From an uncultured Actinomycetes bacterium (GTDB taxonomy: Bacteria; Actinomycetota; Actinomycetes; S36-B12; UBA10799): 64,000 nucleotides of DNA. The position numbers and the translations under genes were made by a program. Under the pieces are notes generated by a model. The model saw only the letters and a program-made list of their open reading frames with translations. It had not been told where the DNA came from and ran no database searches. Every line of letters begins with the position of its first letter. Within the stretch, counting starts at the first letter, position 1. Positions 44,155 to 50,905 of the stretch are shown here, piece by piece. The stretch lies in the NCBI GenBank assembly GCA_963752505.1, contig CAVVYM010000006.1, positions 192,379 through 256,378 on the forward strand, written 5' to 3'.

Positions 44155-44193
44155 AAAAAAACCGAGCGCCCTCATGTTGAGGGCGCTCGGTTT
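44155..44193 (-). terminator. Intrinsic terminator after the DUF3040 gene
   Basis: Perfect stem ACCGAGCGCCCTCA/TGAGGGCGCTCGGT followed by a U-run on the minus strand. Confidence 0.9.
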
Positions 44194-44206: not shown

Positions 44207-44614
44207 CTACTCGGGGTCACCTTCATGGCGGTGACGCCAGCGATCCTCCATCTTCCCCATGAAGCCGCCTGATTCGGTGGGGCTCCCGGTGGAACCGCTT
44301 GAGGGCCCGGGTTGTGCGCCCGCATCCTTCTTGGCCGCGGGCGCCTCCGTCGTGGTCCCGCCGGTGAACGCCAGAATCGCTCCCCCGAGCATCACTACGA
44401 ATCCGATCACACCGACCACGGGTAGTTTGACTGCCACGCCTGCCAGAAGGAGCCCGAGGCCCAGCGCGGCGACCACCACGCCCAGAACCAGTCGTTTGCG
44501 CGAGCCCTGCCGGATGACCGGTTGGCGCAGGGTCGAGGCAAACTTGGGATCCTCGGCGTATAGCGCCCGCTCCATTTGTTCAAGCAGACGCTGCTCGTGC
44601 TCGGATAGTGGCAC
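44207..44614 (-). CDS. DUF3040 membrane protein
   Basis: PLSEHEQRLLEQMERALYAEDPKFA, two TMs, FMGKMEDRWRHR; GTG 44614 with GGAGG. Confidence 0.9.
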   Translation of the reverse strand: MPLSEHEQRLLEQMERALYAEDPKFASTLRQPVIRQGSRKRLVLGVVVAALGLGLLLAGVAVKLPVVGVIGFVVMLGGAILAFTGGTTTEAPAAKKDAGAQPGPSSGSTGSPTESGGFMGKMEDRWRHRHEGDPE

Positions 44615-44775: not shown

Positions 44776-46014
44776 TCAAGTATCCTCCCACGGCTGGCGC
44801 ACGACCAGCCGGGCCGGTCGGATCGCATCCTTGCCATAGCGACGACTGGCCCGGTCCACCGCCTGTTCGGCTTCCCGCCACCCGTGCTCGCGTTCACCCA
44901 GCAGAAGTTGATGCGGGGCTCCGTCGGAATCACTGAGGTTCGCCATGCGGACTCCCACGAGTCGGATGCGTGCCCGCTGGAGACCCAAGGCCTCGAGTAG
45001 TTGGTTGGCCGTGCGATAGACCTCCTGCCCGACATCCACCGGTTCGGCCAATGTTCGGCTGCGTGTGAGAGTGGTGAAGTCCGCGAATCGAACTTTGAGC
45101 ACCACGGTGCGACCCACCACTCCGGCCGCACGCATCCGGGCGGCCACCCTCTCGCTGAGGCGCAGCACCTCCGCAGTCACGACCGTCATATCGTCCACAT
45201 CGACCGGGAAGGTCTCCTCGGCTCCGATGCTGCGTTCCGGCTCGTCGCGCCGCACGGCCCGCTCATCGCGTCCCCACGCCAGGGCGTGCAGCTGCCTTCC
45301 GGCGGCATCGCCCAGCGCCCGTTGCAGGGTGACCGGCGGAGTACCAGCGAGGTCACCCACGGTGCGCAGTCCGAGGCGGTGCAACTGCTCCTCAGTACGC
45401 TGACCCACGCCCCACAGTGCCCCCACTGGAAGGGGATGCAGGAAGGCGACCACCTCGTTGACCGGCACCACAAGCAAGCCGTCGGGTTTGCTCTGCGTCG
45501 AGGCTAGTTTGGCCACGAACTTGGTGCTGGCCACACCAACAGAAGCGACCAGCCCCTGCTCGTCGTGAATCCGTGCTCGGATCAATTCGGCGATCTTCCG
45601 AGGGGAGCCCAACCTGCGCAGCGCTCCTGCAACGTCGAGGAAGGCCTCGTCGAGCGCCAAAGGTTCGACGAGATCGGTGATGCTGCGAAACACCTCCATG
45701 ATCCCTTCGCTGGCGCGAGCGTAGTGACGATGATCCGGTGTGATGACGACGGCGTTGGGTGCGAGTCGACGTGCCCGGGCCATCGGCATCGCCGAATGCA
45801 CCCCCAACTCCCGTGCTTCGTAGGTGGCGGAAAGAACCACACCCCGGTTGCCGGAGCCACCGACAATCACCGGTTGCCCCCGCAGGTGGGGTCGGCTGAG
45901 CAATTCGACCGAGGCGTAGAAGGCGTCCATGTCGACGTGGAGGACGGTGCATCCCGTGTCGTCGTCACCTGCCGACGACAGCCGCGGGCCCCGATTGAGT
46001 TGGGACCTACTCAT
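44776..46014 (-). CDS. dinB: DNA polymerase IV (Y family)
   Basis: HVDMDAFYASVE, SATYEAR, LDEAFLD, AKLAS...KPDG, RLVGV, QLLL clamp motif. Confidence 0.95.
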   Translation of the reverse strand: MSRSQLNRGPRLSSAGDDDTGCTVLHVDMDAFYASVELLSRPHLRGQPVIVGGSGNRGVVLSATYEARELGVHSAMPMARARRLAPNAVVITPDHRHYARASEGIMEVFRSITDLVEPLALDEAFLDVAGALRRLGSPRKIAELIRARIHDEQGLVASVGVASTKFVAKLASTQSKPDGLLVVPVNEVVAFLHPLPVGALWGVGQRTEEQLHRLGLRTVGDLAGTPPVTLQRALGDAAGRQLHALAWGRDERAVRRDEPERSIGAEETFPVDVDDMTVVTAEVLRLSERVAARMRAAGVVGRTVVLKVRFADFTTLTRSRTLAEPVDVGQEVYRTANQLLEALGLQRARIRLVGVRMANLSDSDGAPHQLLLGEREHGWREAEQAVDRASRRYGKDAIRPARLVVRQPWEDT

Positions 46015-46026
46015 CCCTGACCCCTC

Positions 46027-49000
46027 TCATCGGCCCGAACTTCCGTGACTGCTGTGCCACAGTTTGGCGGGCGCGTCCTCCGCGGCCGACACAGCGCCCA
46101 CAATGCCGCGGCCATTTGCGACATCGCCACCTGCGGGGCGGATGTCGGCATACGGCGACTTCCGGAATCCGCTGGCGTACTGCCAGACACGGCCGGCCGG
46201 CGTCCTGGCACCACGGCCGGCATCTGCCGGGCTCGGGGCATTCATGATGACCTCGCCGACCGCAGCGACCCCTCCTGTGAGCCATATCCGATGCATGGCG
46301 GTCAGATCCCAGCAGCCAGTGGCCCGCAACGACACTCCCCGGGGCCCGGTACGGCGTACCCGTCCGCGCACCAGAAGCAACCAGGAACCGAACACCACCT
46401 GGGCGTATGGGTCTTGAGCATCGGGAAAGAACGTGGTGTCAATCGGCCCCGCCCCGTCGTCCAGGGTGAGGAACACCACCCGATGCCCACTGCGGATCGG
46501 CGGCGTTTGGGTTGCGACCTTGACTCCGCCCACCACGATCTCCTGGCTGGAGCGGCACTTCAGCAGCCCAGTCGATCGAGTCGCCCCGAGCTCAGCAAGC
46601 ATGGGTGCGTAGAAGTCGACCAAATGCGCGCTGGCGTCGAGGCCGAGCACCGCGAGTTCGGCCTGCACCCGGTCGCTTGCAGACATCTCCGGCAGACCAC
46701 TCGGCGTGGTGGTCACACACGACTCCCCCAGGTCCAAACTCAACTGCACTGTCGGAGCGGATGACGCCGCCACTGGCGCTTGCCCCTGGCGCCTGGCCGC
46801 GGTCACCGAATCGAAAGTGGTCGCCGGATGGGAGGTCGGTGCCCCTGCCCGTCGACGCTTCTTGGACCCGTTGTGACGCCGGTCGATGCGATCCACCCGG
46901 TCGAGATCTGCGACCTGCAACAGCAGATCTCGGCGGGTGATCCGGCGCTGCCCGTTTCCGGCGACCACTGCCATGCCGAGCACCGAATCGAACGCACCGG
47001 TGACGATCAACCCCTCCACCGTCGTTTTGCTCGCCCCGGAGCGTCGCCAGAAGTCGGGGAGATCAAGGTAGGGCTGACCCGCCACGATGCTCGCCACTTC
47101 GGCATCGCTGATCCCCTTGACCTCGGCGAGCGCCAACCGGATCCCATAGCGTCCCGTGGTCTCGTCGTGCTCCACCTGGTAGGTGGCAACCGAACGGTTG
47201 ACGTCCAGCGGTAGCACGGCAATTCCGTGCTGGCGGGCGTCATCGAGGATGAGCCGCTTCGGATACATGCCGGGGTCATGGGTGAGCACACCTGCGTAGA
47301 ACGCGGCCGGATGATGGGCTTTCAGCCACGCCGAGTGATAGGTGGGCAGCGCGAAAGCCGCCGCATGGGCCTTACAGAAGCCAAATGAGGCAAAGGCGCG
47401 CAGCACCTCCCAGGTGGCCTCGATCGTGGCGACGTCGTAGCCCTTCTCGTGAGCGAGCCGGTAGAACCAGCCCCGCACCTGTTGCTGGCCATCGGGACTG
47501 CCCATGGATCGGCGTACTTCGTCGGCCTCGGCGTGGCTGCAACCGGTCATTACCGCGACGATGCGCAGCACCTGCTCGTGATAGACCACCACGCCATAGG
47601 TTTCCGCGAGTGCCGGACGGAGATCGTCATGGATGTACTCGGGGGCCCGCCAGCCGTGACGTGCCCCGAGGAAGGGGGTGATCATGTCGCTCTTCACCGG
47701 ACCGGGGCGGAACAGGGAGATGTCGATGATGATGTGGTCGAACGTCTCCGGGGCGAACTTGCCGAGTAGTTCCCGTTGACCGGGCGATTCGATCTGGAAG
47801 CAGCCCAACGTGCGAGTGGAACGAATCAACTCGAACGTGCTCGAATCATCGAGCGGAAGGTCGTCGAGCACGATCTCTTCAGCATCCACCCGGCGCACCT
47901 CGGCCACCGCATGCTGCAGCGCCGATTGCATCCGGATGCCCAGCACATCGAGTTTCAGGAAGCCGAGAGCCTCAACTTCGTCCTTGTCGAACTGACTCAT
48001 CGGAAAGCCCTGCCAACTGGCTTCCACCGGTGTGCGGTCGAGCATGGTGGCATCCGACAGCAGCACTCCGCAGGGGTGGACCGCAATATGGCGGGGTAGA
48101 CCGTCAAGCGACTCGACCAGATCGAGGAACACGTCCAACTCGCCGCTGGCTGCCAACTGGCCGATACCCGAACTCCGCAATTCGGGCAGATCCTGCAACG
48201 CCGATCGCACGTCGGCCGCCCGGATGTGGGGGAAGGCCTTGGCGAAAGTGTCGATCTCGCCAGGGGGCATGCCCAGGGCGGCACCCACATCGCGGATTGC
48301 GTGGCGCACCCGGTAGGTATCACGCATCGAGACGCACGTGCAGCGCTCACCGCCGAATCGGTCGAGGATCCGCTCGTACACCTCGGTCCGGCGTGCTGAT
48401 TCGACATCGACGTCGATGTCGGGCAGGGATCGCCGCAACGGGGAGAGGAACCGCTCCATCAACAGGTCGTGTTTCAGCGGATCGACCCCGGAGATGCCCA
48501 GAAGGTGGTTCACCAGGCTCCCCGCACCTGACCCTCTGGCAGCTGCGCGCACGCCCATCTCACGGATGAGATCAACAACCTCGGCGACGGTGAGGAAGTA
48601 GCCGGCGAATCCAAGGTCCGCGATGGTGGCCAACTCCGCCTCGAGCCGGTCGCCGGCAGCACGGCGATGCCCCCAGCCTCGGCGGTTCAACTCGGCCTCG
48701 CAGCGCGATCGGAGGAGGTGCTGCGCTTGCGCCGCTTCGGCGTCCACCAGCGCCCGGCTTCGTCGGCGAGTGTCGTATCCGGCGAGCACTGCGCCCACCT
48801 CTCGGGTGGCACCGGTTCCAAGTGCGCCCCGGCGCTGCACCACCTCGAGTTCGGGCACGTGGATGTCGCCAAGGCCCACGTCCGCAATCGGATCGAGCAA
48901 GCACTCCTGGGCCACCGCAACAGTGCTGGCCAGCAACTCCCGACCCAGGGACGCCACGCTGCCGGTGTCGACGAAACCGGCGATCTCTGCAACCACCGGG

Positions 49001-49842
49001 CGCAGTTGCTCCCAACTCTTGAGGTAACCCTGTGCGTTGGCGCGGTCAAGATGGCGCACATCGAGCGGCACGAGTCGCCGAATGGCGTCTAGCGTGTCGG
49101 CCACCGGAGCGCTCGCGGCAGACACATAGCGAACGGCGTTGCTCAACACCGCTGCCACCCCGCACTGCTTGGCCACCGACAGTAAGCCCGCAGCCGCCCG
49201 AGCCGAACGCACCACAGCGTTGGCAGATCGTCCGGCTGCTCCCCCTCCCCCGTCTCGGCTGCGGTGCGATGCCACCTCTACCCGCACCGCCGCTGGTCCG
49301 ACTCGGGCGAGCCACCAACGGAGTTCGGTCGCCGCGACATCTGGTCGCCGCCTGGCAACTGCCTGCCCAACAGTCGAATCGGCTCCGAGAAGCACGATGA
49401 GATCCCCGTGACGGACGTACTCAGCGATGAGTTCTGCCGTCGCCGCCGGCTTTCCGCGCTCCCCTCCGAGGTGGACTGCGGACACCAACCGGCACAGCGC
49501 CGCCCACCCCCGCCCGCCACGTGCAAGCACGACGGTGCGCGAATCGGCCTCCCAGACTGCTGCTCCACCACGAGTCGGAGTCCGCTTCGGACGACCCGGG
49601 CCGCCCGCTTGGGACACCTGCTGGTGCGTAACGGAGAGATCGACCCCCAAGATGCAGCCAACTCCCGCCTCGCGGCACGCCTGTGCGAACCTCACAGCGC
49701 CGTAGAGACCGTCACGATCAGTCAGGGCGATCGCACGCTGCCCCAATTCAGCGGCCTGGTTCACGAGTGCGTCGGGTGCCGAAACACCGTGACGCAAGGA
49801 GAAGCTCGAGACCGTCCGGAGGTGGACAAACGGATCCATCAT
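46027..49842 (-). CDS. dnaE2: Error-prone DNA polymerase III alpha (actinobacterial DnaE2 type)
   Basis: Degenerate PHP (TDRDGLYG), RGSGAGS, PDIDVD, KLDVLG, FGFCKAHAAAF, OB fold, terminal LWHSSHGS. Confidence 0.92.
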   Translation of the reverse strand: MMDPFVHLRTVSSFSLRHGVSAPDALVNQAAELGQRAIALTDRDGLYGAVRFAQACREAGVGCILGVDLSVTHQQVSQAGGPGRPKRTPTRGGAAVWEADSRTVVLARGGRGWAALCRLVSAVHLGGERGKPAATAELIAEYVRHGDLIVLLGADSTVGQAVARRRPDVAATELRWWLARVGPAAVRVEVASHRSRDGGGGAAGRSANAVVRSARAAAGLLSVAKQCGVAAVLSNAVRYVSAASAPVADTLDAIRRLVPLDVRHLDRANAQGYLKSWEQLRPVVAEIAGFVDTGSVASLGRELLASTVAVAQECLLDPIADVGLGDIHVPELEVVQRRGALGTGATREVGAVLAGYDTRRRSRALVDAEAAQAQHLLRSRCEAELNRRGWGHRRAAGDRLEAELATIADLGFAGYFLTVAEVVDLIREMGVRAAARGSGAGSLVNHLLGISGVDPLKHDLLMERFLSPLRRSLPDIDVDVESARRTEVYERILDRFGGERCTCVSMRDTYRVRHAIRDVGAALGMPPGEIDTFAKAFPHIRAADVRSALQDLPELRSSGIGQLAASGELDVFLDLVESLDGLPRHIAVHPCGVLLSDATMLDRTPVEASWQGFPMSQFDKDEVEALGFLKLDVLGIRMQSALQHAVAEVRRVDAEEIVLDDLPLDDSSTFELIRSTRTLGCFQIESPGQRELLGKFAPETFDHIIIDISLFRPGPVKSDMITPFLGARHGWRAPEYIHDDLRPALAETYGVVVYHEQVLRIVAVMTGCSHAEADEVRRSMGSPDGQQQVRGWFYRLAHEKGYDVATIEATWEVLRAFASFGFCKAHAAAFALPTYHSAWLKAHHPAAFYAGVLTHDPGMYPKRLILDDARQHGIAVLPLDVNRSVATYQVEHDETTGRYGIRLALAEVKGISDAEVASIVAGQPYLDLPDFWRRSGASKTTVEGLIVTGAFDSVLGMAVVAGNGQRRITRRDLLLQVADLDRVDRIDRRHNGSKKRRRAGAPTSHPATTFDSVTAARRQGQAPVAASSAPTVQLSLDLGESCVTTTPSGLPEMSASDRVQAELAVLGLDASAHLVDFYAPMLAELGATRSTGLLKCRSSQEIVVGGVKVATQTPPIRSGHRVVFLTLDDGAGPIDTTFFPDAQDPYAQVVFGSWLLLVRGRVRRTGPRGVSLRATGCWDLTAMHRIWLTGGVAAVGEVIMNAPSPADAGRGARTPAGRVWQYASGFRKSPYADIRPAGGDVANGRGIVGAVSAAEDAPAKLWHSSHGSSGR

Positions 49843-50276
49843 CACCCCGTCTGCCTCAAAACCGGCATAGCACCCAGCTCCTGCTGGTGCGCCACCCCTA
49901 ACTGCCGGCACACCAAATCGAGGAAGCACTCCGCATCCCGGGTGAGATCTGCTGCCTCCCGCGGCGTCACCTGCCCCAGACCCGCTTCAGCGGCGGCCCG
50001 CTTTGACGCTCCCGCTGCGAAAAAGGCCGCCCACTCCGAAAACTCGGGCGCCATGACCGTCAGCAAGTCCCATGCGCTGCGCGGCCGGCGACGCCCATTC
50101 GGTTTGCCCTTGCACGCGAGGACGGCGGCGGCTGCGCGGAGCGCCGCCAGGTGGGCCAGCGCGTACTGCTCACGTGGTTGTTCGGCACTCGAAGCAGCAG
50201 CGATGCCGCGTGCCGAAGCAGCCAGCAGATCCTTTGCAGCCGACGGTACCCGCGCGGGTGTCGGAACGTGGATCAT
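49842..50276 (-). CDS. SAV_6107-family HEPN domain protein
   Basis: YALAHLAALRAAAAVLA, SAWDLLTVMAPEFSEWAAFFAAGASKRAAAEAG, READLTRDAECFL-like end; AGGAGG RBS; stop overlaps the dnaE2 start. Confidence 0.85.
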   Translation of the reverse strand: MIHVPTPARVPSAAKDLLAASARGIAAASSAEQPREQYALAHLAALRAAAAVLACKGKPNGRRRPRSAWDLLTVMAPEFSEWAAFFAAGASKRAAAEAGLGQVTPREAADLTRDAECFLDLVCRQLGVAHQQELGAMPVLRQTG

Positions 50277-50319
50277 GGTCAATCCCTCCTTGATGTGGTG
50301 AATGGCGTCGCTTGGTTCG

Positions 50320-50682
50320 TCAGTCCCAGACCCGAGTGAGCCACCATCGCTCCGATCCGGGTTCGTACACGAGGTCGTAAGTGCCGGGTGCCGACTCCGC
50401 CAACCTCGGACGCCGCTCAGCCCTCGCCGTGACCCGCCACACCAGGTGCTCTGCCAACTCGCCATCGAACGTCATCGGTATGGCTCGCGGGCTAAGCGCA
50501 GCGCCGCGTCGCCACCATGGGATCGCCTCGATCCAGTGGCTCAACACATCAATGACCCGATACCACCGTTGACCGCGACGGAAGCGCACTGGAGGTGACT
50601 CCGTCGTGATCAACGCACCCTCCCCACCTGTGGGTGAGCTGGCGGTCTGCACCAGGCAGATGTCCTGGTGTCGTCTGCTCAT
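50320..50682 (-). CDS. DUF6504-family protein
   Basis: PVRFRRGQRWYRVIDVLSHW...PWW, EHLVWRV, YDL...WWLTRVWD; GGAGG RBS before ATG 50682. Confidence 0.8.
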   Translation of the reverse strand: MSRRHQDICLVQTASSPTGGEGALITTESPPVRFRRGQRWYRVIDVLSHWIEAIPWWRRGAALSPRAIPMTFDGELAEHLVWRVTARAERRPRLAESAPGTYDLVYEPGSERWWLTRVWD

Positions 50683-50795
50683 GAGGCCCCTCCGATCGCT
50701 GGTCCACCTGAGGAGGCGGACGGGTTGATGTGTTGCTGTGGTGACTGCCGTGGCTGGTCGCAGTAGTGCTGAGTAGTTCCCCATGACAGCCATAA

Positions 50796-50811
50796 TCGAA
50801 CATAGGTACGA
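50796..50811. promoter_or_regulatory. LexA (SOS) box
   Basis: TCGAAC-ATAG-GTACGA, one mismatch to the actinobacterial TCGAAC-N4-GTTCGA. A weaker copy TCGAACATATTTACTA lies at 50867-50882. Confidence 0.8.
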
Positions 50812-50905
50812 CAAATCCAGTGGAGCAGGGTTGAACTCACCGCGTCAAGACGTTTGACACATTTTATCGAACATATTTACTAAGACTTGGTGCTAGCCTC
50901 TGACC

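Follow-up and report, generated by a model that had tools for sequence, protein, structure and literature searches.

A LexA-boxed four-gene operon of an uncultured actinomycete as a probable DnaE2B-type translesion mutasome without ImuA and ImuB

The window analysed here, a 64,000-nucleotide stretch of the genome of an uncultured actinomycete, carries on its minus strand a four-gene operon that is probably a LexA-repressed translesion mutasome of the DnaE2B type, the variant without ImuA and ImuB described for Actinobacteria. Behind a LexA (SOS)-type box lie, in this order, genes for a DUF6504 protein, a HEPN_SAV_6107 protein, a DnaE2-type polymerase and DinB. This composition matches the "DnaE2B + active PolY + stand-alone ImuB-C + RecA" module of Actinobacteria, as set out in the portions of the two publications cited here (PMC6511836, NAR 2019; PMC12926913, NAR 2026). 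The likeness comprises a DnaE2 whose genome has neither imuA nor imuB, a Y-family polymerase with an apparently intact active site and a RecA-NT motif, and a small stand-alone beta-rich protein, all of them in an actinobacterium. The HEPN gene between the small protein and dnaE2 sets the present operon apart from the module as published in those portions. An earlier note on this DNA had proposed an alternative mutasome in which two small subunits take the place of ImuA and ImuB; the cassette does lack both, but the idea of an ImuA/B-free mutasome, although right, was already in print, and the published reading gives the role of ImuA to RecA.

The box, TCGTAC-CTAT-GTTCGA (50796..50811, minus strand), stands 113 nt upstream of the DUF6504 ATG and has one mismatch to TCGAAC-N4-GTTCGA, the LexA box consensus of Actinobacteria. 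It exceeds chance, as its genome-wide rarity, its company and its conservation all indicate: the 2.70-Mb genome contains no perfect box and 17 boxes with one mismatch, three of which precede recA, lexA and this operon, with the mismatch count equal at all three; the orthologous place bears a perfect box in 33 of 39 comparison loci and a one-mismatch box in three more; and L076, the closest relative found, carries exactly the same box, mismatch included. The 113-nt 5' leader (50683..50795, minus strand) has no unusual structure detected, with an RNAfold z-score of 0.02, no match in Rfam and none at E<=1 to a leader-RNA model (R1) built from relatives.

The four genes are co-oriented and tightly packed, as had been read from the sequence before. 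The DUF6504 stop (50320) is separated from the HEPN ATG (50276) by a 43-nt gap with AGGAGG inside, the HEPN stop TGA (49844-49842) has one base in common with the dnaE2 ATG (49842-49840), and 12 nt lie between the dnaE2 stop (46027) and the dinB ATG (46014). The first intrinsic-terminator-like hairpin downstream of the operon on the minus strand, with a 16-bp stem and a T run, is found at 44159..44193, and from 50811 to 44193 that strand has only one other terminator-like site, a 7-pair stem within dinB (45857-45841); such sites total 4, against 3.6 in shuffles. Between dinB and the hairpin lies a DUF3040/SCO2097-family gene (44207..44614, minus strand; PF11239 E 9.2e-28; NF058603 152 bits, cut-off 110), a conserved downstream neighbour that is syntenic in most loci and is probably outside the mutasome.

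The absence of ImuA and ImuB, noted earlier for the window, extends to the whole genome, which is 98.4% complete: a search for either gene elsewhere in it found neither imuA/imuA' nor imuB. The Pfam IMS model, which as a positive control finds six of six actinobacterial ImuB proteins (E 1e-9 to 1e-13), matches only DinB here, and an ImuB query that finds ImuB in a genome of the same family (G079) and in one of the same order (G001) finds none in the source genome (G000). An ImuA model matches RecA only, scoring 43 bits where the cut-off is 150, and an ImuA' query that matches 30 of 30 ImuB loci reaches no E value better than 0.31 in the source genome. RecA and LexA are both present. Across the sample, none of the 24 genomes with DnaE2B at the locus was seen to have ImuB, versus 11 of the 15 without it, the absences being a floor in view of the stricter first look of the ImuB query search; DnaE2B and ImuB are mutually exclusive in these genomes. 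Within one family the source genome has DnaE2B and G079 has ImuA'-ImuB, a difference showing that each system takes the other's place within a short evolutionary distance.

The C-family polymerase (1271 aa; 46027..49842, minus strand) has the Pfam domains PHP, DNA_pol3_alpha, finger, HHH_6 and OB, and scores below both NCBIfam cut-offs (DnaE, 628 of 1002; error-prone, 622 of 939). Its identity amounts to 28% with the genome's own DnaE1, 31-37% with a DnaE2A and 53-66% with its orthologues in 24 loci, in none of whose genomes ImuB was seen; the label DnaE2B denotes its composition, these identity levels and the absence of imuA/B, not placement on the published tree. The PHP motif is degenerate, as judged from the N-terminal residues against those of the genome's own DnaE1, and an internal clamp-type motif, QLSLDL, is found at residue 1033, with a QLxLxL-type motif in 20 of 22 full-length orthologues.

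DinB/Pol IV (412 aa; 44776..46014, minus strand) is the product of the only IMS-domain gene in the genome (IMS E 9.3e-48, with IMS_C and HHH; NCBIfam "DNA polymerase IV" 408 bits, cut-off 367). The DMD and DE carboxylates, from which an active enzyme had been proposed, are present in VDMDAFYASVE and LALDEAF, and DxD occurs in 31 of 31 orthologues; to judge by these residues, DinB looks catalytically intact. Its C-terminus carries the clamp-type sequence QLLLG and then a RecA-N-terminus-like motif (REAEQAVDRASRRYGKDAIRPARL). The N-terminus of the genome's own RecA contains ...LDTALAAIEKSFGKGSVMRLG..., and the resemblance is to its ...AIEKSFGKGSVMRL, in a comparison made by eye and unscored. The C-terminal motifs of DinB are conserved across 31 orthologues, with the pattern ...REAExAVDRAxxRFGxGAVRPAxL.

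The first gene of the operon, single-copy in the genome, encodes a DUF6504 protein of 120 aa (50320..50682, minus strand; PF20114 E 7.7e-7, 29.8 bits, cut-off 24.2). Its longest frame (50320-50814) extends across the LexA box, and the likely start codon is the ATG at 50682, since an SD sequence, GGAGGGG, precedes it and the resulting N-terminus, MSRRH..., is like the MSRRY/MTRRY of relatives. DUF6504 is tightly tied to the DnaE2B type across the phylum. Within the class it is found in 23 of 24 loci with DnaE2B, the exception being one DnaE2B locus without an adjoining copy (L009), versus 1 of 15 loci without; in other classes 17 of 20 loci have DnaE2 next to DUF6504, and 19 of the 20 have an upstream box with no more than one mismatch. 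In the co-occurrence survey of DUF6504, SAV_6107, dnaE2 and dinB, a check that the earlier note had suggested, DUF6504 follows DnaE2B, whereas HEPN also occurs without it.

We take DUF6504 for the published module's "stand-alone ImuB-C", an equation that profile comparison leaves unconfirmed. Aligned by hhalign with 28-29 actinobacterial ImuB C-termini it gave a probability of 0.9-1.4% and a score of 14.4, no better than shuffles, as 4 of 30 column shuffles scored as high; PF20114, even at E<=10, matched none of 6 ImuB proteins from Actinobacteria, its weak matches in five ImuB-bearing genomes fall away from ImuB, and a search for a fused DUF6504 form found none. Such results would suit a protein unrelated to ImuB-C, namely a small DnaE2B-specific accessory with its own fold, e.g., a binder of DNA lesions or of the PHP domain. 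However, PF20114 does pass its cut-off in the control genome of Caulobacter vibrioides, which we take to carry imuA-imuB-dnaE2, the place of the match in that genome not being given. Moreover, DUF6504 and the ImuB C-termini are both small and beta-rich and, as read in alignments, have in common a WW(R/D) followed, at the extreme C-terminus, by W-x-[LV]-x-x-x-x-D; a conserved C-terminal tryptophan and beta structure are described in the cited part of Aravind et al. (PMC3765255). The AlphaFold2 model (pLDDT 80.3), built of five strands and a single short helix, matched no PDB fold (best E 0.42, TM 0.36), but ImuB-C itself reportedly has no relative in the PDB. ImuB-C is also the only small partner that the published module names, and HEPN, being helical, cannot be that partner. 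On balance, a DUF6504 unrelated to ImuB-C appears quite improbable.

The HEPN_SAV_6107 protein (144 aa; 49842..50276, minus strand; PF18726 E 3e-34) has, according to its all-helical model (pLDDT 91.9), the four-helix HEPN fold; its top PDB folds are the HEPN proteins 2hsb, 1wol, 3o10 and 4nqf, the first two being the best (probability 0.96-1.00, TM 0.5-0.69, with weak E values of at least 0.17). In this fold the catalytic R-x(4-6)-H motif is presumably to be expected where the last core helix begins; the family alignment has R106-E-A-D-D-L-x-R113-D there instead, and the histidine is absent. An R37-x4-H42 string in helix 2 occurs in at least 90% of homologues, and the window's protein has Q at position 37. 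SAV_6107 is listed with a HEPN motif that is not conserved in the cited part of Anantharaman et al. (PMC3710099). Many members of the family end in a conserved ...LGLPHQxxLP tail.

Found in 154 of the 201 genomes of the class, HEPN_SAV_6107 occurs throughout the class behind a LexA box and is among the most widely kept LexA-box genes of Actinomycetes. Its position in the operon would nevertheless suit an integral, stoichiometric subunit of the mutasome that stands in for ImuA or the ImuA loop and bridges DnaE2 and other parts: besides the overlap of its stop codon with the dnaE2 start, it immediately precedes DnaE2B in 24 of 39 loci, at a distance of -2 to +66 nt in 20 of the 22 listed (111 and 205 nt in the remaining two), its sequence is unusually conserved (38-61% identity across families, alignment A2), and in L042 it comes just before imuA' behind the same box, heading an imuA'-imuB-dnaE2 operon. 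We regard this subunit role as very doubtful. HEPN is LexA-boxed with no nearby DnaE2 in several loci, six having dinB only and seven having no polymerase gene within 9 kb, and it has its own LexA box in canonical imuA'-imuB-dnaE2 genomes (L042, L031), where it coexists with ImuA' and ImuB and therefore does not replace them. Around DUF6504 in other classes it was found by tblastn or HMM in 0 of 20 loci, 17 of them with adjoining DnaE2, and PF18726 gave 5 matches only, all weak, in about 232 genomes of other classes. The main texts and one supplement of the ImuA/B-free module papers (PMC12926913, PMC6511836) contain no mention of the gene. Thus, of the two small proteins once proposed to replace ImuA and ImuB, DUF6504 keeps its close tie to DnaE2B, whereas HEPN is unlikely to be a replacement because it is class-wide and also turns up next to canonical imuA'-imuB-dnaE2, next to dinB only, or with none of these.

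It is tempting to speculate, with low confidence, that HEPN_SAV_6107 is a non-catalytic TLS manager across the class Actinomycetes, a DinI- or UmuD-like part serving whichever error-prone set is present (DnaE2B/ImuB-C/DinB, ImuA'-ImuB-DnaE2A or DinB alone); such a manager might act through RecA or the beta-clamp. Widely retained with a LexA box, the gene is a fair knockout target in a cultured, harmless relative. DUF6504 follows DnaE2B across the phylum and HEPN does not, and experiments on the core complex can therefore omit HEPN.

In the mechanism that we propose, DNA damage would lead to RecA-stimulated cleavage of LexA, freeing the box at 50796-50811 and allowing DUF6504, HEPN, dnaE2 and dinB to be co-transcribed. 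DinB would be an active Y-family polymerase docking on the beta-clamp via QLLLG and on RecA, with RecA standing in for ImuA, as the motifs and published models suggest. DUF6504 would represent a split-off ImuB C-terminal domain, of as yet unconfirmed homology, that binds the PHP domain of DnaE2, while DnaE2B, whose PHP (proofreading) motif is degenerate and which carries a QLSLDL clamp-type motif of its own, would be the second, error-prone polymerase. HEPN_SAV_6107, presumably co-transcribed with and translationally coupled to dnaE2, would be the product of a separate SOS gene and not a core mutasome subunit, most likely a non-catalytic adaptor or regulator.

An unlikely alternative reading dispenses with the complex: DnaE2B and DinB would be independent damage-inducible polymerases that share a single transcript under LexA control, from a long-standing syntenic position beside DUF3040, and the small genes would have unrelated SOS roles. 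The order ...-dinB-DUF3040 is kept in six loci without dnaE2, so that synteny alone holds neighbours together here, each polymerase has its own clamp-type motif, and the present evidence consists of genes and motifs. This reading sits poorly, however, with the tight coupling of DUF6504 to DnaE2B across the phylum, the mutual exclusion of DnaE2B and ImuA'B, the conservation of the RecA-NT-like motif of DinB, and the AlphaFold models in the cited part of PMC12926913, which favour complexes for this module type. The mutasome reading matters in that DnaE2-type mutasomes drive damage-induced mutation and, through such mutation, the emergence of drug resistance among Actinobacteria, and the operon adds one more example of the ImuA/B-free variant.

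Comparison with known systems places the operon among several related arrangements. With the mycobacterial ImuA'-ImuB-DnaE2 mutasome (Warner et al. 2010, as cited in PMC6511836; PMC10421592; both in the portions cited here) it has in common control through a LexA box, a DnaE paralogue that is non-essential and whose PHP domain is degenerate, a Y-family protein, and contacts of the clamp and RecA types, which are deduced here from motifs; the same HEPN gene even heads the imuA'-imuB-dnaE2 operon of L042. Unlike that mutasome, it has neither ImuA' nor a catalytically dead ImuB, its Y-family member keeps the carboxylates, the ImuB-C-like part is a separate gene, and its DnaE2, only 31-37% identical to a DnaE2A, has its own QLSLDL. 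The Streptomyces coelicolor dnaE2-dinB2 operon (PMC3273824; DnaE2B-iPolY-RecA in PMC12926913) likewise combines dnaE2 and a Y-family gene in one damage-inducible unit without imuA/imuB, inducibility being predicted in the present case; according to the cited portions, scDinB2 is classed as inactive and no ImuB-C is reported, whereas the DinB of the present operon looks active and is accompanied by DUF6504. In Streptomyces-like loci (L030) HEPN stays beside DUF3040, away from dnaE2. The Geobacter lexA-imuB-C-polY operon (GSU0041-0043 type; PMC3765255, PMC6511836, in the portions cited) similarly has a stand-alone small ImuB-C-type gene 5' of an active Y-family polymerase under SOS control, but it is without DnaE2, has lexA inside the operon and belongs to a different phylum. 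Finally, E. coli Pol V (UmuD'2C-RecA-ATP) is also an SOS-induced Y-family polymerase that needs RecA via a RecA-NT-type contact and a small accessory subunit, features read here from genes and motifs; in contrast to Pol V, the actinobacterial set has no UmuD-like self-cleaving subunit and includes a second polymerase, of the C family.

Read on the minus strand, the operon opens with a palindromic LexA-type box, TCGTAC-CTAT-GTTCGA (50796-50811), followed by four co-oriented genes: DUF6504 (50320-50682; Pfam PF20114, E 7.7e-7, slightly over the cut-off), HEPN_SAV_6107 (49842-50276; PF18726, E 3e-34), the C-family polymerase gene dnaE2 (46027-49842; Pfam PHP, DNA_pol3_alpha, finger, HHH_6 and OB) and the Y-family polymerase gene dinB (44776-46014; Pfam IMS, IMS_C and HHH, and NCBIfam DNA polymerase IV above its cut-off). 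Pfam and the sequence bear out the box before four packed genes that an earlier note described, and its spacing was right on both counts: HEPN's stop overlaps the start of dnaE2 by one base, and the dnaE2-dinB gap is 12 nt. The 43-nt gap 5' of HEPN contains AGGAGG. The longest DUF6504 frame reads across the LexA-type box; the true start is most likely ATG 50682, which predicts a 120-aa protein behind a leader of 113 nt, because this codon is preceded by GGAGGGG and the resulting N-terminus, MSRRH, is like the MSRRY/MTRRY of relatives. A simple sigma-70 scan returned no promoter, an uninformative result that was expected in this phylum. About 160 nt past dinB lies a DUF3040/SCO2097-family gene (44207-44614, minus strand; Pfam and NCBIfam), at whose end stands a strong terminator-like hairpin with a 16-bp stem (44159-44193, minus strand); this neighbour is syntenic phylum-wide, including at loci without dnaE2.

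Against TCGAAC-N4-GTTCGA, which we take to be the LexA box consensus, the 2.70-Mb genome holds no perfect copy and 17 one-mismatch copies, three of which lie upstream of recA (C12:137817), lexA (C12:148490) and the operon. For comparison, 40 loci around HEPN matches, drawn from roughly 40 families of the class Actinomycetes, were fetched, and one (L041) was dropped for want of a HEPN match by tblastn. Among the remaining 39, the box ahead of HEPN, or of the DUF6504-HEPN pair, is perfect in 33, has one mismatch in three and two mismatches in one; one locus is without a box and one runs off its contig. L076, the closest relative found, from a MAG labelled Actinomycetota (DnaE2 86% and DinB 90% identical), carries the same four genes and an identical one-mismatch box. 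A weak second half-box, TAGTAA-ATAT-GTTCGA (50877-50892, minus strand), whose right arm is perfect and left arm poor, sits 65 nt 5' of the main box and faces a short divergent ORF from about 50906 (plus strand).

The earlier note had reported imuA and imuB as missing from the window; profile and protein queries across the genome (98.4% complete, 12 contigs) found neither gene elsewhere. Pfam IMS matched a single gene, the operon's DinB, and since the same model matches six of six known actinobacterial ImuB proteins (E 1e-9 to 1e-13), any ImuB in this genome would have shown. The ImuB of locus L042 found none in this genome, giving only a weak cross-match to DinB; as a control it recovered true ImuB from two other genomes, G079 of the same family (E 1.9e-109) and G001 of the same order (E 6e-123). 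Besides its ImuB, G079 (L006; C6:58516-60057) holds only a LexA-boxed HEPN at the orthologous locus. The NCBIfam ImuA model reached only RecA, far under its cut-off, and the ImuA' candidate of L042 had no match in the genome (best E 0.31; control, 30/30 ImuB loci). The genome encodes one RecA and one LexA. ImuB occurs in none of the 24 comparison genomes with DnaE2B, the ImuA/ImuB-free DnaE2 type, at this locus, versus 11 of the 15 without it, the ImuB absences in these tallies being a floor because the first look in the search was stricter. The by-genome tallies of HEPN, ImuB and PF20114 include 14 genomes flagged as unpublished, and no single-locus claim depends on these. Between the window and G079, the DnaE2B and ImuB types of mutasome seem to swap within one family.

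The operon's DnaE2 falls under both relevant NCBIfam cut-offs (DnaE, 628 of 1002 bits; "error-prone DNA polymerase", 622 of 939) and is 28% identical to DnaE1, the genome's other DnaE, 31-37% to a DnaE2A of the canonical ImuA'-ImuB-DnaE2 mutasome and 53-66% to its orthologues. The PHP residues at its N-terminus are degenerate (HLRTVSS...LRHG versus HLHVHTEYS..LDG in DnaE1). At residue 1033 it carries QLSLDL, a hexapeptide of the clamp-binding type, and a QLxLxL-type motif is found in 20 of 22 full-length orthologues; in DnaE2B such a motif would allow clamp contact without ImuB. As the earlier note read from the sequence, DinB retains its DMD and DE carboxylates. Its end is formed by QLLLG and then REAEQAVDRASRRYGKDAIRPARL, a motif kept in 31 orthologues and resembling, by eye, the N-terminus of the genome's own RecA, ...AIEKSFGKGSVMRL. 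PMC6511836 and PMC12926913 describe one DnaE2B subgroup as confined to Actinobacteria, propose that RecA takes ImuA's place through the Y-family protein's RecA-N-terminus-like motif, and propose that ImuB-C, the C-terminal domain of ImuB, binds the PHP domain of DnaE2. Judged from its genes, the operon fits the composition of this published actinobacterial DnaE2B module. The alternative, ImuA/B-free mutasome suggested in the earlier note therefore holds as to composition and the missing imuA and imuB, but it was already in print (PMC6511836, 2019; PMC12926913, 2026).

That note also saw the two small genes as replacements for ImuA and ImuB, and here they part: DUF6504 follows DnaE2B, but HEPN also stands beside canonical imuA'-imuB and was not found at the out-of-class loci sampled. 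An iterated HMM search placed DUF6504 in 23/24 DnaE2B loci (not L009) and in 1/15 others (L038). Across the phylum, 93 of 251 genomes carry PF20114, and 88 of these carriers lie outside the class; at 20 out-of-class loci DnaE2 adjoins it in 17, with DinB and DUF3040 often next, and 19 of the 20 have an upstream box with at most one mismatch.

DUF6504 is a likely candidate for an ImuB-C domain, a reading drawn from shared features: a WW(R/D) motif and a very C-terminal W-x-[LV]-x-x-x-x-D are common to DUF6504 and ImuB C-termini, and DUF6504 is the only beta-rich member of the operon's two small proteins. Aravind et al. (PMC3765255) found ImuB-C to be rich in beta structure, with a tryptophan conserved at its C-terminus, in a study whose own link between stand-alone and fused ImuB-C has E-values of only 1e-3 to 1e-5. 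Modelled at pLDDT 80.3, DUF6504 shows five strands with a single short helix, and a fold search of the PDB returned no match (best E 0.42, TM 0.36); this agrees with, and does not prove, a published remark (PMC12926913 or PMC6511836) that ImuB-C is a beta-barrel without a close PDB relative. Profile comparison did not confirm the identification: when 25 DUF6504 domains were aligned in hhalign with 28-29 actinobacterial ImuB C-termini, the probability was 0.9-1.4% and the score 14.4, a score that 4 of 30 column shuffles reached and that did not exceed those of reversed or shuffled controls. PF20114 matched none of six ImuB proteins, and its weak matches in five ImuB-bearing genomes lie elsewhere than ImuB. 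In favour of the identification, PF20114 was over its cut-off in the control genome of Caulobacter vibrioides, which we take to carry imuAB-dnaE2, the locus of the match not being given. Longer, fused DUF6504 relatives were not found, in a search that is itself weak evidence; a protein atlas search returned DUF6504 clusters only, and nothing once these were skipped. PDB sequence searches with DUF6504, HEPN and ImuB gave nothing useful and no ImuB structure. A complex prediction of DnaE2 residues 1-420 and DUF6504, with HEPN as partner, scored 0.50, 0.00 and 0.00 against a mark of 0.32 and gave no answer on binding either way. The term "DUF6504" is absent from the literature searched, which covered few subscription journals.

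HEPN is present in 154 of 201 class genomes, nearly always as a single copy. Outside the class, about 232 genomes gave five weak matches, one over the cut-off and four with internal stops, and neither tblastn nor HMM recovered HEPN at any of the 20 DUF6504 loci from other classes, at most of which DnaE2 still adjoins DUF6504. Within the class, the 39 loci place HEPN upstream of DnaE2B (24), upstream of dinB alone (6), more than 9 kb from any polymerase gene (7) or beside canonical systems (2; box-HEPN-imuA'-imuB-dnaE2A in L042 and imuB-dnaE2A-box-HEPN in L031), and in all four contexts it keeps a LexA box. Boxes with at most two mismatches also occur at 43 of 79 mostly Streptomyces loci, compared with 0 of 76 control stretches; most read YCGAAC-N4-GATCGA and lie some 220 nt 5' of the HEPN match. 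In the mostly Streptomyces loci L078-L155, HEPN adjoins DUF3040 and is distant from dnaE2. HEPN is accordingly a class-wide, LexA-box-fronted gene, predicted to be co-transcribed with whichever error-prone polymerases are present. That it substitutes for ImuA or ImuB is unlikely, because it also stands, LexA-boxed, beside canonical imuA'-imuB-dnaE2, beside dinB alone and away from any polymerase gene.

The HEPN model (pLDDT 91.9) is all-helical, and its best PDB matches are the HEPN proteins 2hsb, 1wol, 3o10 and 4nqf, with weak E-values. At the position of R-x4-6-H, which we take to be the motif of HEPN RNases, the HEPN_SAV_6107 family has R-E-A-D-D-L-x-R-D, with no histidine. The missing histidine, together with a listing of the motif as not conserved for SAV_6107 (Anantharaman et al., PMC3710099), makes an RNase role improbable. 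Many homologues, not all, have a conserved C-terminal tail, ...LGLPHQxxLP, past the helical domain (LGVAHQQELG in the window), which could be a short docking motif. M. tuberculosis Rv3395A was ruled out as a HEPN gene, being divergently transcribed from imuA' (PMC8682763). The kind of operon is already published and its HEPN gene was not found in the literature searched. There, with most subscription journals outside its scope, the 2013 HEPN survey (PMC3710099) is the one paper to mention "SAV_6107", and no paper joins "HEPN" with "DnaE2"; the papers matching both "HEPN" and "LexA regulon" were two toxin-antitoxin reviews. "HEPN" is absent from the main text and part of one supplement of PMC12926913, and the supplements on the S. 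venezuelae LexA regulon contain no "HEPN", "SAV_6107" or "DUF3040", where the orthologue may bear another name.

In twelve relatives a conserved three-hairpin leader separates the LexA box from DUF6504 (L011:8308-8431, L015:9025-9166 and L037:8387-8520, L024:10043-10180 and L033:9767-9891 on the minus strand, and seven more loci). The strings UCGACCC, GGGGAAGC and CUUCCC(CC) do not vary among them; GGGGAAGC caps a long hairpin of 14 predicted pairs, nine with compensatory changes, and GGGGAAG is complementary to CUUCCCC. Rfam had no match in seven leader-bearing loci. R1, the covariance model of these twelve leaders, recovers three or four further loci and, at E<=1, has no match in the window, in L076 or in out-of-class loci. 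As the window's own leader also folds no better than shuffles, the conserved leader RNA is not part of its operon and lies outside this finding.

Ten relatives (L015, L022, L023, L024, L026, L033, L036, L037, L043 and L045) have dnaE2 and dinB separated by about 0.9 kb, with room for one gene, compared with only 12 nt in the window. An Rfam flavivirus stem-loop match inside dnaE2 (47594-47635, plus strand; 24.7 bits versus a gathering score of 38.3) is taken as chance. In one metatranscriptome (run X18), a few short, low-depth contigs cover parts of dnaE2 and the 5' end of dinB, possibly by DNA carry-over, with no cover on the DUF6504 or HEPN genes, and so do not bear on expression. Long contigs of a ~96%-identical strain in the DNA run X3 jointly span nearly the whole cassette.
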